Source of the DNA: Nannocystis bainbridge
GTDB lineage: Bacteria > Myxococcota_A > Polyangia > Nannocystales > Nannocystaceae
Assembly (NCBI RefSeq): GCF_028368995.1
Contig: NZ_JAQNDL010000001.1
Coordinates: 576,001-640,000, forward strand
Direction of reading: 5' to 3'
DNA length: 64,000 nucleotides
Shown: positions 8,440 through 13,918 of the stretch, one piece after another
Layout: each line of letters starts with the position of its first letter
Numbering within the stretch: the stretch's first letter is position 1
Notes under the pieces: model-generated
Seen by the model: only the letters and a program-made list of their open reading frames with translations
Told to the model about the DNA's origin: nothing
Databases searched by the model: none
Program-made: the position numbers and the translations under genes

Positions 8440-9435
8440 TCACAGCGCCAGCAGGCCGCGCGCCGCGTCGAGCGCCAGCGGCTGGGCCCCGTAGCTGGCC
8501 GCGCCGACGCCCCAGCGCGCGAAGCCGGCGGGCTCCGGCGCCTCGTCGGTGGCTGCGCCATGGCTCCACCAGCCGGTCACGCTCAATCGCTTGCCGCGCG
8601 CGTACGGCGACACCGGCGTGACCGCGTGCACGGTCTCCGCCGCGACGTTGAACACGATCAGCGTGTTGAATGACGGCACCACCTGCGCGCCGCTCGGGCC
8701 CCACACGAACTGACCGCCCGAGGCCGCGTCCCAGTCGCGGGCGAGGTGCCACACGAACGCGACGGCGCGCGCCAGCTTGTGATCGGCGTGCGGCGCCGCG
8801 AAGTCGCCGGCGACGTAGCGCGTCGCCCCGAGCTCGAGCGGACCGCCGCAGTCGCGGCCCGACAGCGCCGCCGCGAGCTCGCGGCTGGCGGCGGCGCCGA
8901 ACAGCGCGCGGCTGGCCGCGATCGTCGGGCCGGCGGGGTCGGCCTCGTCGAGCACGTGGTGTCGATAATGCGGCGAGCTGCCGAACGCCTCGACGGCGCG
9001 CCAGCGGACGGCGGCGTCGAGGGCCGCGCCGACCCGCTCGGCGAGGTCGCGGCGCAGCGCGTCGCGGATGACCACGGCCCGCCCGGCGGCCAGCTGGGCG
9101 GCGATGTCGTCCTTGCGCGCCAGCGCGGCCGGGTCGAGCGCTTCGACCAGCGACGTCGGCCACGCCGCGGGCGCGACCGCGGGCGTGCGTTCGTCGACCA
9201 GCAACCCCTCGGCGACCAGGCCGGCGACCGTCGCCGCCAGCTCGGCAGGCGAGCCGAACTCGGCGAGCGTCGCGTGGGCCGCGGCGATCGTGCGCGGGCA
9301 GGCGAACGCGGCCAGCGTCTGGAACACCCGCGGCGCCAGCGAGAAGGCGCGCCGACCGACGAGCGCGACGACCGTCGCGTCAGGCCCGGGGCGAAACACG
9401 CACGCGGGCGCGAGGACATAGGACGACTCCGGCAT
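8440..9435 (-). CDS. Fe(II)/2-oxoglutarate oxygenase (prolyl-hydroxylase-like) with an N-terminal RRE/winged-helix-like domain
   Basis: YxxGDFxxPHAD ... W(D)xxxGG ... PxFNTLxxF ... VHAV ... RLSVTGW. The first ~85 aa show a strands-then-helices pattern ending LVAEGLLV. Confidence 0.8.
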   Translation of the reverse strand: MPESSYVLAPACVFRPGPDATVVALVGRRAFSLAPRVFQTLAAFACPRTIAAAHATLAEFGSPAELAATVAGLVAEGLLVDERTPAVAPAAWPTSLVEALDPAALARKDDIAAQLAAGRAVVIRDALRRDLAERVGAALDAAVRWRAVEAFGSSPHYRHHVLDEADPAGPTIAASRALFGAAASRELAAALSGRDCGGPLELGATRYVAGDFAAPHADHKLARAVAFVWHLARDWDAASGGQFVWGPSGAQVVPSFNTLIVFNVAAETVHAVTPVSPYARGKRLSVTGWWSHGAATDEAPEPAGFARWGVGAASYGAQPLALDAARGLLAL

Positions 9436-9525
9436 TGGCACCACCACTCAGCGCTCGTACCCGCGGCCGCGCCGTCGCGTCAAGCCGCAGCGCGCTCGAC
9501 CCGTCGCGGGCGAAATGAAGCATGT

Positions 9526-9737: not shown

Positions 9738-9899
9738 ATGAAGGAGACGATTCAAGAGGTCGAGGGCGTGAAGGAGATCGATCCGGCCCACATCCACGAC
9801 CTGTTCCAGCTCGAGACCCTGGCCCCGCCGAGCGAGGCCAACGGCATGAGCTGCTGCGTGATCATCTGCCGGACCTGGACCCCGGGCCAGGCGGGCTGA
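9738..9899 (+). CDS. Putative RiPP precursor peptide, 53 aa (MKETIQEVEGVKEIDPAHIHDLFQLETLAPPSEANGMSCCVIICRTWTPGQAG)
   Basis: AGGAG SD at 9724-9728; GC3-biased codons; acidic leader plus Cys-rich C-terminus; directly upstream of modifying-enzyme genes. Confidence 0.82.
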   Translation: MKETIQEVEGVKEIDPAHIHDLFQLETLAPPSEANGMSCCVIICRTWTPGQAG

Positions 9900-9925: not shown

Positions 9926-10732
9926 ATGACGATTCCACCGGACAACTTGTCGGAGTATCGCGACCACGGCGCGACGGTGCTGCGCGGCGTCATCCCGGCG
10001 AGCTGGCAAGCCCGCCTGGAGGCGGCGATCGACCGGGTGCTCGCCGCGCCCGGCTCGATCGCCGTCGACTACACCCCGCCGGACCGACCCGGTCGCTTCT
10101 ATAACGATTTCTTCTTGTGGCTGCGCGAGCCCGAGTTCGCCGCGTTCGTGCGCGAGTCGCCGCTGCCCGCGCTGGCCGCGGAGCTGCTCGGCGCGGCGAA
10201 GGTCGGGTTCTTCTTCGACCAGCTGTTCGTCAAGGAGCCGCGCACCCAGGAGAGCATGCCGTGGCATCAAGACCTGCCGTACTGGCCGGTCGCGAGCGAC
10301 GCGCTGGTGACGATGTGGGTGCCGCTCGACGTCGTCACCCGCGAGAGCGGCGCGGTGGTCTACGCCCGCGGCTCGCACCGCTGGGGTCGCGTCGCCAAGC
10401 GCTGGCGGTTCGCCCGCGACGGCGCGACGGCCCCGCCCGAGACGGAGGAGATCCGCGAGGCGTCGTTCATGTACTGGGACCTGCGGCCCGGCGACGTGCT
10501 GGTCCACCACCCGCTGACGGTGCACGCGTCGGGCGGCAACGCGACGCCGGGGACCCGCCGCCGCGCGCTCGCGCTGCGCTACTTCGCCGACGGTTGCGTG
10601 TACCAGCCGCGCGAGGGCGACATCCTGCAGAACCCGCGCGTGCGCGAGCTGCTGCCTGACCTCGCCCTCGTCGCCGGCGAGCCGCTACGCGGCCCGGAAT
10701 TTCCGATCGTGTGGCCCCCGGAGGTCGCGTGA
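9926..10732 (+). CDS. Phytanoyl-CoA dioxygenase (PhyH)-family Fe/2OG dioxygenase
   Basis: DQLFVKEP, WHQD, WVPLD, GSHRW, PGDVLVHH..TVHASGGN, RRALALRY. True start ATG 9926; the ORF track over-extends it. Confidence 0.88.
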   Translation: MTIPPDNLSEYRDHGATVLRGVIPASWQARLEAAIDRVLAAPGSIAVDYTPPDRPGRFYNDFFLWLREPEFAAFVRESPLPALAAELLGAAKVGFFFDQLFVKEPRTQESMPWHQDLPYWPVASDALVTMWVPLDVVTRESGAVVYARGSHRWGRVAKRWRFARDGATAPPETEEIREASFMYWDLRPGDVLVHHPLTVHASGGNATPGTRRRALALRYFADGCVYQPREGDILQNPRVRELLPDLALVAGEPLRGPEFPIVWPPEVA

Positions 10733-11556
10733 CGCCGCCGCCGCTGGTCGGCTTCGCCTATCGCCGGCAGTATCGCGCCGCGCTGTGCGAGGCGGCGCGC
10801 GGGCCCGACGTGCTCGAGCTGATGGCCGAGTCCTTCGACCCGCGCCTGCCCGGCCGGATCGACGACGTGCGAGCGCTGCGCGAGCGCTACGCGCTGATCG
10901 GGCACAGCGTCGGGCTGTCGATCGGCTCGGTCGAGCGCCCGCCGCAGGCCTACCTCGACGGGCTGGCGCGCTTCGTCGAGTTGGTCCAGCCGCGGGTCTA
11001 CAGCGACCACTTCGCCGTCACCTACGCCGGCGGGCGCGACCTCGGGCACCTGACGCCGATCTGGTACGGCGAGCAGGCGCTCGAGGTCGTCGTGAACAAC
11101 CTTACCGCGGCGCGGCGCTTGCTCGGCGTGCCGATCTGCCTCGAGCTCATCGCCGAGCCGTTCTCACTGCCCGGCGCGCAGTGGGACCAGGCCCGCTTCG
11201 CCGCCGAGGTGTGGCGCGCGTGCGGCTGCGGGATCCACCTCGACGTCACCAACGTCTTCATCAACGCCCGCAACTCGGGTCAGTGCCCGCGGGCCTCGAT
11301 CGCCGCGCTGCCGGCCGAGGCGGTGCAGATGATCCACGCCGTCGGCTTCGGCCGCTACGAGCACGGCGAGCTGGCCGACACCCACGACCAGGACATCCAG
11401 CAGGAGCTGTGGGACCTGCTCGCGTACACCTTCACGCGCGTGCGCCCGACCACCGCCGTCATCGAGCGCGACGCCAACTTCCCGCCGTACGAAGCGCTGC
11501 TGGCCGAGGTCGATCGCATGCGCTCGCTCGCCACGCCCCTGGAGGTCGCCTCGTGA
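10729..11556 (+). CDS. DUF692 / multinuclear non-heme iron-dependent oxidative enzyme (MNIO; MbnB/TglH/ChrH family)
   Basis: GHSVGLSIGS, SDH, LELI, LDVTN, IHAVG, DTH, IERDANFPP: the iron-ligand pattern of DUF692. GTG start overlaps the upstream stop (GTGA). Confidence 0.9.
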   Translation: MTPPPLVGFAYRRQYRAALCEAARGPDVLELMAESFDPRLPGRIDDVRALRERYALIGHSVGLSIGSVERPPQAYLDGLARFVELVQPRVYSDHFAVTYAGGRDLGHLTPIWYGEQALEVVVNNLTAARRLLGVPICLELIAEPFSLPGAQWDQARFAAEVWRACGCGIHLDVTNVFINARNSGQCPRASIAALPAEAVQMIHAVGFGRYEHGELADTHDQDIQQELWDLLAYTFTRVRPTTAVIERDANFPPYEALLAEVDRMRSLATPLEVAS

Positions 11557-13691
11557 CACCGCTGACCCTCTGCATGATCGTCAAGTTCCCGCCGATCCAG
11601 GGCGGCGTCAGCCAGCAGAGCTACTGGCTGGCGCACAACTTCGCGCGCGCCGGTCACCGCATCCACGTCGTCACCAACGCGCTCGAGGCCGCGTCCGACT
11701 ATCGCATGTTCCTGCCGGCGGCCGAGCGCCCGCACCTCGAGGGCGAGTACCCCGGCGGCGGGTTCGTCCGCCTGCACGCGAGCGACGAGGCCGGGCTCGA
11801 GGGCAACTACATCCCGTACGCCAACCCGTACGTCAGCAAGCTGGCGGCGCTGGCCCGCGACGTGGTCCGCGAGCACGCCTGCGATCTGATCTGGGCCGCG
11901 TACCTCGAGCCCTACGGGGTCGCGGCGGCGCTGGCGTCGAAGCTCACCGGGGTGCCCTACGCGGTCCGCCACGCCGGCAGCGACATCGCCGGGCTGGCGC
12001 AGCTGCCGGCGCGCCAGAACCTCTACCTCGACGTGCTCCGCCACGCGAGCCTGGTGGTCACCGCGCCGTTCCTGCGGCCGACGCTGGAGCGCGTCGGGGT
12101 CGCGCACGCGCACATGTTCGCGGTGCCGCTCGCCGCATACGCCAGCGCGGGCTTCGAGCCCGACGGGCCGAAGCTCGACGTCGAGGCATTGCTCGACGAG
12201 GCCGCGGGCGAGCGCGGGCCGTGGCCCCGGCCGGCCCGGCGCTTCGACCCCGCGCTGCCGACGTTCGGCATCTACGGCAAGGTCAGCGGCTACAAGGGCA
12301 TGTTCGAGGTCGTCGCCGCGCTCGGCGAGCTCGCGGCCCAAGGTCGCCGCTTCAATCTTTTGACGTTGGTCGGCGCGCGCGGGCCGGCGGTCACGGCCCT
12401 GCAGCAGGCGGTCGCGCAGGCCGGCATCGCCGAGTCGACGTACGCGCTGCCGTTCTTGCCGCACTGGATGGTGCCGCGGTTCATCCGCACGTGCACCGCC
12501 GTGTGTTTTTTGGAGAACCGGTTCCCGATCGCCATCCACACGCCGCAGGTCGGGTTCGAGATCCTCGCGTGCGGCCGCTGCCTGATCGTGTCCGAGGAGG
12601 TGCGATCGAAGACGCAGCGGCGCGCCGATCTGGTCGACGGGGTGCACGCGCTCGTGATCGACGATCCGGCCGACGCGGCGCAGGTGCGGCGGGCGCTGGC
12701 GCGGGTGCTCGACGACCCCGCCGAGGTGCGGGCGATCGGCGCGCGCGGGCGAGAGTTCGTGACCGGGCGGTTCGCCGCGCCGGACGTGTCGGCGGTGGTG
12801 AAGCGGCTGCGCCGCGTGATCGAGGAGGCAAACCCGATGTCCCTGGAGGGCCTGCAGCGGACCCTGAGCGAGCTCTACGCCGATCCGTCGCTGCGCGCCG
12901 CGCTGGCGGCGGGCGAGGAGGCTGGCCTGCACGGCCGCGACCTCGACGACCGCGAGCGCGCGGCGGTGCTGGAGCTGGGCCGGCGGCTGATGCCGCAGGT
13001 CGAGCGCTTCGGGCAGATGCTCGTGCACAAGCGGCTCGAGTATTTCCTCGAGCTGTTCGCCGCGACCGCGCCGCACCTGCGGGCGCACGAGCCGGCGCTG
13101 TTGGCTGCGTTCGCGCGCGAGTTCGATTTCCGCTGGCGCGCGCCGGCCGAGGACGTCGCGTACTTCGGCGAGTTCCTGCGCCGCCTGCTGGTCGCGCCGT
13201 GGCCGGCCCACGTGCGCGAGCTGGTGCGCTACGACGAATGCATGTGGCGGGCCGAGACGACCGACGACGACGCCGCGCCCGCGTTCGAGCGCCTGCTCGA
13301 GATGCAGATCACCGAGCCGCCCGGCCTCGGCGCGGCGCCGCTGAGCGCCGAGGACCGCGTCGCGCTCGCGCCCGGGGTGATCGTCGAGCGCTTCGCTCAC
13401 CCGGTGCACCGCCTGGCCGCGGAGGGCCCCGAGGCGCGGTTCGAGCCGGCCGCGACGGTGATCGTGTTCACGCCCCGGCGCGGAGCGACCGCCGCCCGCG
13501 CCCACGTGATGAACGAGGAGCTCGTCCGCCTGGCCACAGCCGCGGGCGACGGCCATCCGGTGGCGGCGCTGCTCGACGAGGCCGCGGCGCGTCACGCGGA
13601 GCGCCCGGCCGAGGCGGTGCGGCAAGCCGCCCTGCGCGCGCTGCAACGGCTCGGCGAGCGTCACGTGCTCGTGCGCGCGCCGCTGCGGTGA
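11553..13691 (+). CDS. GT4-like glycosyltransferase fused to a C-terminal MNIO-partner-like (DUF2063/RRE-type) domain
   Basis: GTG at 11553 overlaps the MNIO stop. N-terminal part: KFPPIQGGVS, HAGSDI, GKVSGYKG, EILACG. From ATG 12837: MSLEGLQRTLSELYADP...KR... ending in a winged-helix-like segment. Confidence 0.8.
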   Translation: MTPLTLCMIVKFPPIQGGVSQQSYWLAHNFARAGHRIHVVTNALEAASDYRMFLPAAERPHLEGEYPGGGFVRLHASDEAGLEGNYIPYANPYVSKLAALARDVVREHACDLIWAAYLEPYGVAAALASKLTGVPYAVRHAGSDIAGLAQLPARQNLYLDVLRHASLVVTAPFLRPTLERVGVAHAHMFAVPLAAYASAGFEPDGPKLDVEALLDEAAGERGPWPRPARRFDPALPTFGIYGKVSGYKGMFEVVAALGELAAQGRRFNLLTLVGARGPAVTALQQAVAQAGIAESTYALPFLPHWMVPRFIRTCTAVCFLENRFPIAIHTPQVGFEILACGRCLIVSEEVRSKTQRRADLVDGVHALVIDDPADAAQVRRALARVLDDPAEVRAIGARGREFVTGRFAAPDVSAVVKRLRRVIEEANPMSLEGLQRTLSELYADPSLRAALAAGEEAGLHGRDLDDRERAAVLELGRRLMPQVERFGQMLVHKRLEYFLELFAATAPHLRAHEPALLAAFAREFDFRWRAPAEDVAYFGEFLRRLLVAPWPAHVRELVRYDECMWRAETTDDDAAPAFERLLEMQITEPPGLGAAPLSAEDRVALAPGVIVERFAHPVHRLAAEGPEARFEPAATVIVFTPRRGATAARAHVMNEELVRLATAAGDGHPVAALLDEAAARHAERPAEAVRQAALRALQRLGERHVLVRAPLR

Positions 13692-13880
13692 CTGCCATGA
13701 TCGCCCGAGTCACTCGGCGAGCACCACATCGTGCGCCGTTGCAGTGACTGCCGTGATCGTCCGTATCACTCGGCGAGCGTCACGGGATCGTGCGCGCCGC
13801 TGCTGTGACTGCCGTGATCGTCCGTATCACTCGGCGAGCGTCACGTGATCGTGCGCGCGCCGCTGCAGTGACTGCTGTGA
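13650..13880. repeat. Four imperfect ~60-bp tandem repeats; the first is the 3' end of the GT gene
   Basis: Units beginning CTCGGCGAGC at 13650, 13713, 13769 and 13830. Confidence 0.85.
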
Positions 13881-13918
13881 TTCGCTGCGAGCCCGGTCGA
13901 CTACGATCGGGCGCTCGA

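Follow-up and report, generated by a model that had tools for sequence, protein, structure and literature searches.

What is made from a glycosyltransferase gene that carries a second set of translation signals inside its own reading frame? This question is raised by a locus in the 64,000-nucleotide stretch of Nannocystis bainbridge DNA analysed here (the window). At window:11553-13691 (+), translation gives a single ORF of 712 aa without internal stops, and together with homologue searches it identifies a GT4-partner fusion, the predicted long product. A Shine-Dalgarno (SD) sequence, GAGGAGG, lies within it at 12822..12828 (+), and 8 nt from it an in-frame ATG (12837-12839) opens a reading that gives MSLEGLQRTLSELYADP. 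A sequence-only reading of this DNA had already reported this frame, SD and ATG, and re-reading the sequence agrees with it. From comparison with related sequences, it is quite probable that the one gene gives two products, the GT4-partner fusion and the free partner. The fusion gene would thus encode two in-frame products: initiation at GTG 11553 would yield a 712-aa GT4 glycosyltransferase with a peptide-binding RRE tail, and initiation at the internal SD and ATG 12837 would yield a free 284-aa TglI-type partner, the required second subunit of the MNIO. The full explanation, in which the GT-RRE product of this two-product gene acts on the precursor of an MNIO RiPP, is favoured with fair confidence.

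The gene cluster and the partner domain

A divergent 2OG-Fe(II) oxygenase gene (8440..9447, -; PF13661, E 2e-13), which is conserved next to the cluster in Nannocystaceae (L089, L092), precedes a candidate RiPP precursor of 53 aa (9738..9899, +), which is Cys-rich with a C-terminal MSCCVIIC core. By eye, no hydrophobic N-terminal stretch of the kind found in a signal peptide is seen in it, and it has homologues in L001, L089 (two) and L092 (two). The next genes encode a PhyH-type Fe/2OG dioxygenase (9926..10732, +; PF05721, E 8e-34), also present in L001, L089 and L092, and the MNIO (DUF692) enzyme (10729..11556, +; PF05114, E 5e-64). This MNIO falls under every NCBIfam subfamily cut-off, the best match being BufB with 181 bits against 310. 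The fusion starts at GTG 11553, overlapping the MNIO stop codon, with its own SD of -10.0 kcal/mol; its nearest named relative, from Nannocystis pusilla, is 88% identical. Some variation was seen around this core. A methyltransferase gene stands between the PhyH and MNIO genes in L001 (4399-5170) and L092 (7240-8010, the copy with the Pfam match); it is absent from the window (10729), which has one precursor where L089 and L092 have two. A 61-bp tandem repeat (13650-13881, 3.8 copies), not found elsewhere in the genome, overlaps the last codons and the stop of the fusion with its first copy.

The C-terminal part had been read as an MNIO partner, and the fold comparison bears this out. A single-sequence fold of this domain was unusable (pLDDT 42); the model of residues 429-712 built from a 33-sequence alignment reaches pLDDT 90. 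It matches TglI over the whole length (8hci, Z 17.1, rmsd 3.3 Å, 250 aligned residues, model 1-282 on chain 2-269), followed by 3dee (NGO1945; Z 15.0) and then by matches at 7.5. Foldseek, proposed earlier as a check of these residues, also returned a TglI-type match (8hi7, E 6e-6), and a PDB sequence search did not detect TglI. The partner (12837..13691, +; 284 aa), the predicted short product, is complete: its modelled N-terminal helices (residues 1-66; 12837..13034, +) carry most of the predicted MNIO interface, and an RRE/PqqD-like domain is placed at residues ~160-284 (13314..13688, +) by profile match and fold comparison. The end segment once described as winged-helix-like is this RRE. 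The comparison with HvfC and DUF2063, also suggested earlier, was negative: NF050145 gives 22.9 against a cut-off of 142 bits, and a DUF2063 Pfam match is absent, so neither signature of a PME-type 1 or HvfC partner is found above cut-off. The ApyI model matches 8 of 33 partner relatives, below cut-off. With a helical N-terminal domain and an RRE matching 8hi7 and 3dee, encoded together with an MNIO and lacking a DUF2063 signature, the modelled partner is PME-type 2 by the definitions in the main text of PMC12452194.

A model of the complex of MNIO and partner scores 0.89 (best control 0.00), a mark reached by 116 of 157 solved pairs and 2 of 215 mismatched pairs, and this pass may only reflect likeness to TglHI, since that structure is solved. 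Between runs, 92% or more of the contacts are shared, and the partner has a pLDDT of at least 84. The predicted interface consists mostly of partner residues 1-15 and 39-66; according to the text of PMC10880893, deletion of TglI residues 1-15 abolishes TglH binding.

One product or two

It had been asked whether homologues are fused or split, and both kinds occur. Homologue search with the GT returned 358 proteins (120 listed); combined with a profile search it gave 49 proteins in which the GT domain is followed by a complete partner. Most GT members are not full fusions: in a set of 189 GT domains, 133 have no more than a partial tail, and 17 are classed as tail-less, a count that includes cuts at contig ends (L057, possibly others). 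Named fused homologues, among the matches listed, come from Nannocystis, Bryobacteraceae, Streptomyces, Tengunoibacter and Microbulbifer. Single-sequence search found no free-standing C-domain among 8000 candidates, which reflects the limited sensitivity of that search, because a profile search with the C-domain gave 966 proteins at E<=1e-10. A single-query scan of genome contigs gave 2 loci, plasmids gave 2 matches (GT only), and viral contigs gave none. The cluster occurs in 1 of 401 genomes of the phylum sample and in 6 of 73 of the order; thus, its distribution is patchy. Two larger architectures were also met, a GT-partner-creatininase triple fusion (P0007, 967 aa) and a GT followed by two partner tails, both partial (P0087, 947 aa).

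The fused and the two-gene forms exclude each other. Among 80 metagenome loci, the fused ones have an MNIO in 9 of 9 cases and a free partner gene in 0 of 9, several of these contigs being short. A free partner accompanies 42 of the 43 non-fused loci with an MNIO in view, a ratio that overstates independence since these loci are mostly of one clade; the single exception has little DNA past the MNIO. The window's genome has no other free partner of the same subfamily. Tails of the non-fused GTs are mostly homologous to the partner, and the match starts at profile position 43 or later, so that the RRE is kept and the first MNIO-binding helices are missing. In these related clusters, two genes would supply a free partner and a GT whose tail retains the RRE but no longer the MNIO-binding helices, that is, the same pair as one gene with an internal start. 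P0024, which is nested inside a fused clade and has lost the start, suggests a route between the two forms; the tree is unrooted as to its direction.

The internal ATG had been said to read like the N-terminus of a free-standing partner. Indeed, 100 of 124 free-standing relatives begin at the position of the internal start and 15 more at a Met five residues on, with the reservation that a gene called on a truncated contig could account for some of these free entries. At two loci, L070 and L037, the partner is seen free in DNA directly after its own MNIO. The anti-SD duplex at the internal start of the window (-11.8 kcal/mol) is the strongest of 42 in-frame ATG and GTG codons scored in the gene; when 400 genes of the same genome were examined, an equally strong one preceded only 0.39% of their 2597 in-frame ATGs. 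Distinct fused loci with DNA number 12 (the window, L001, L002/L092, L089 in reverse orientation, L003, L004, L005, L006=L007, L008, L071, L077 and L079), and in 11 of them an SD of -5.6 kcal/mol or stronger lies 5-8 nt upstream of the internal start. The exception, L003, lacks the internal SD (-0.9), and its GT start is also without an SD. The SD is spelled GAG GAG, AAG GAG, CAG GAG or AGG AGG, in two codon phases, and the amino acids that encode it vary accordingly (EEA, KEV, QER, QEL, RRQ, RRK). Local folding revealed no consistent reduction of mRNA structure at the internal start. As judged from these sequences, a conserved SD and start codon stand at the domain boundary, the pattern by which an N-terminal proteoform is recognised, and together with the exclusion of fused and free partners they lend support to the internal start proposed earlier.

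One locus of this series differs in another way. In the record of Nannocystis sp. RBIL2 and in G439 (L002/L092), a deletion of ~665 bp relative to L001 leaves the MNIO with its 5' third and the GT without its initial ~35 codons, and the internal SD and ATG are intact; it may be a true loss or an assembly error.

The main alternative to two products, which we consider fairly unlikely, is that only one polypeptide is made, the fusion binding the MNIO by itself, and that the SD and ATG survive as relics from adjacent genes that have fused recently and more than once. With a full partner domain, the long form could bind the MNIO on its own, and the internal SD resembles that of the free partner in L070. 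In the partner tree, roughly half of the fusions are mixed with free partners, which leaves room for several events of fusion or fission. However, the trees of GT and partner, built for 41 fusions, have 20 of 23 supported splits in common, and the window belongs to a clade of 18 members (support 1.0) that are all fused and all have Met at the start position, even though its deep members share only ~21% identity with the window in the partner domain. By these comparisons, the gene is an old fusion. The persistence of the SD through differing amino acids and less-used codons also speaks against relics, as does the failure to find, among the 80 loci, any tail-less GT directly before a free partner.

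The glycosyltransferase and its substrate

If two products are made as we propose, the role of the long one depends on its GT-B/GT4 domain (residues ~1-405; 11553..12767, +), which contains K11-x2-PIQGGVS, AGSD, K243/K248 and E321...E336. PF00534 matches residues 236-401 (E 7e-8; 32.6 bits against a gathering score of 26.4), as expected of a GT4, and PF13439 matches residues 17-166 below cut-off. The E-x7-E motif had been read as HTPQVGFE; this segment is actually H329-x6-E336. Among 189 GT domains E321 and E336 are invariant (189/189), 14 residues apart, and H329 is found in 178; in the alignment to solved GT4s, an insertion falls between E321 and E336. Thus, the canonical spacing is replaced by E321-x14-E336, a variant motif that is compatible with GT4 chemistry. 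K243 and K248 are also invariant.

It is likely, from sequence, that the GT acts on the precursor peptide. The alternative, rated as unlikely, is that two products are made but that the GT glycosylates no peptide, either using a small-molecule substrate as BshA and MshA do, or serving as a pseudo-enzyme or scaffold. The nearest solved relatives by sequence do include small-molecule GT4s of the BshA type (E 1e-4 to 1e-3), and besides the changed E-x7-E spacing the His of H-G-T-D-type motifs is not kept (H140 in 119/189). Set against this are the RRE-containing tail of most members, the invariance of K243, K248, E321 and E336, and the short Cys-rich ORFs that adjoin fused, non-fused and tail-less GTs alike; these three features in combination favour transfer to the precursor. 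The sequence-only reading had taken the fusion as the best evidence that the GT acts on a RiPP. The fusion itself is real, but it does not in itself tie glycosylation to the MNIO complex, as 133 of the 189 GTs have only partial tails without the MNIO-binding helices. Stronger evidence than the fusion comes from the RRE tail found across the family and from the Cys-rich precursors. In addition, the product of the MNIO is probably not always required, because no MNIO is in view at 12 of the 13 loci with a tail-less GT.

Under the preferred explanation, the free partner and the MNIO would bind the Cys-rich precursor through its leader and oxidise residues of the core, Cys being the probable target. 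With the same RRE, the long product would hold the precursor and glycosylate it from an NDP-sugar; the most likely acceptor is a sulfur derived from Cys, the other candidate a hydroxyl that an oxygenase has installed. On sequence grounds, S is a tentative first choice of acceptor atom, O is a plausible second, and any other atom is doubtful; S-glycosylation is ranked slightly above O-glycosylation of an installed hydroxyl because Cys is the constant feature. The cluster as a whole would probably represent a Cys-rich RiPP family with a glycosylated product. Genes of the JmjC, 2OG, PhyH or P450 types stand beside the GT in the window, L070, L071, L075, L077, L081 and L091. An obligatory hydroxylase was considered and rejected: such genes are common neighbours, yet in the largest non-fused clade none was found except a TauD on the opposite strand at tail-less L011, with 59 of 152 candidate ORFs covered in one scan.

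Several neighbourhoods of this family are worth recording. Tail-less GT4s of the same family at L011, L017 and L075, without an MNIO in view, are accompanied by short ORFs of the GCGCG or CGC type, and L075 additionally has a radical SAM enzyme and a P450. A large clade (L028, L032, L035, L046, L047, L072, L078) has precursors of ~100-125 aa ending in WRMYPN...CGCNCGC and the gene order precursor-MNIO-partner-GT, often with adjoining ABC substrate-binding genes.

Probable constraint on the internal start, and known systems

The internal start looks to be under selection, as far as sequence comparison can tell. At the start position, 42 of the 49 fusions have M; V occurs in 4 of them, L in 2, Q in 1 and Ile in none, and the Q case has an M two residues on. 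Of the 6 V and L cases, for which V and L are also ordinary substitutes of Met, DNA was seen for one, L079, where the internal start codon is GTG. The start Met is the best-conserved Met of the protein; other Met columns reach at most 21/49 or 18/39. AGGAG is encodable at residues -6 to -2 in 34 of 49 fusions, against a background of 10%. When codons were resampled with the amino acids fixed, the SD was stronger than expected over 10 loci (Fisher p 3.6e-4) and, with one locus per lineage, over 7 lineages (p 1.1e-3). The window (p 0.93), L001 (0.79) and L003 (1.0) contribute nothing to this result, and 4 loci besides the window reach individually only p 0.06-0.79. In the window GAG, the default codon for Glu, already spells the SD, and unusual codons are not needed.

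It might be argued that Met-Ser is conserved for the structure of the protein and that a charged linker helix or a pause site accounts for the purine-rich stretch. Residue 1 of the partner is at the predicted interface, linkers rich in E, K and R yield purine-rich DNA, and the window itself shows no codon bias; nevertheless, replacements confined to start-codon residues and a spacing of 5-8 nt between SD and start in 11 of 11 cases make this very improbable. Moreover, in a free form, Met preceding Ser is normally removed by methionine aminopeptidase, which also counts against a structural role. A sequencing error or lost stop codon near 12830, once proposed for re-inspection, has a negligible chance, for although a TGA in another frame (12817-12819) lies just upstream of the SD, it is missing from the equally fused L001, 49 fused homologues come from several phyla, and a soil-metagenome contig spans 12396-13395 with 6 different letters and 0 gaps.

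The separate parts of this system have precedents. As in TglI, ApyI and PME-type 2 partners, a helical N-terminal domain and an RRE are matched over the whole length, and the coding sequence comes right after the MNIO gene (PMC12452194, PMC10880893); the partner of the window differs in forming the C-terminal 40% of a glycosyltransferase and in having an internal start. Bufferin and oxazolin clusters (BufB-DUF2063, HvfBC) likewise combine an MNIO, a partner and a Cys-containing precursor. In contrast, the leader of the window's precursor is acidic, inspection by eye shows no signal peptide, and the cluster adds a GT4 and 2OG oxygenases; neither a Sec-signal precursor, as judged by eye, nor a BufB/HvfB-type MNIO above cut-off is found there. 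Glycosyltransferases inside RiPP clusters are known for glycocins, cacaoidin (Cao24, for which a GT4 is proposed to act) and NAI-112, and no MNIO or partner fusion is described for these in the text covered of PMC8068269. GT-RRE fusions are mentioned in the main text of an RRE survey for PF00535 (GT2) only (PMC12710340). Internal in-frame starts giving a separately functional C-terminal product are exemplified by the long and short forms of CcmM, SsaQ, CheA, IF2 and GALLS (text of PMC11005335); these proteins are unrelated, and the short form predicted here is, unlike theirs, a free-standing gene in sister clusters.

The word "glycosyl" has 0 occurrences in the main text of PMC12452194, a count that covers text and not the Pfam names in the image of Fig. 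5b. Nothing relevant was found in the covered part of the supplements of that paper and of PMC12710340, and the portions covered of PMC13174530 and PMC8776678 have no relevance to the combination. The search, beyond whose reach lay most subscription journals and figures, returned no description of clusters with MNIO and GT4-RRE or of internal starts in RiPP enzymes; the combination was thus not found in the literature searched and may already be listed somewhere. A broader proposal, which we regard as speculative, is that of an undescribed multi-phylum class of glycosylated MNIO RiPPs, in which the RRE guides a GT4 to S-glycosylate CxC/CC cores, either at Cys or at thiols generated by the MNIO; in one branch a single gene would supply both the GT and the obligatory MNIO partner, owing to its conserved internal start, and the two-gene form would have come about when these functions were divided between genes.

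The 358 GT matches point to a widespread MNIO RiPP family that has its own GT4 with an RRE and may hold new peptide glycochemistry. The gene also seems to offer an example, backed by evolutionary comparison, of a RiPP enzyme gene giving two proteoforms. Surveys seeking a free partner gene after the MNIO would miss fused partners, and routine codon optimisation could erase the internal SD, with loss of the free partner. Finally, five MNIO-like frames are present in the window's genome, and one of them (G000:C3:1682665-1684539) joins an MNIO and a partner-like domain in one frame, a second fusion, whose junction is without an internal SD or start and which adjoins a KSCG/EGxC-type precursor with a hydrophobic N-terminus.
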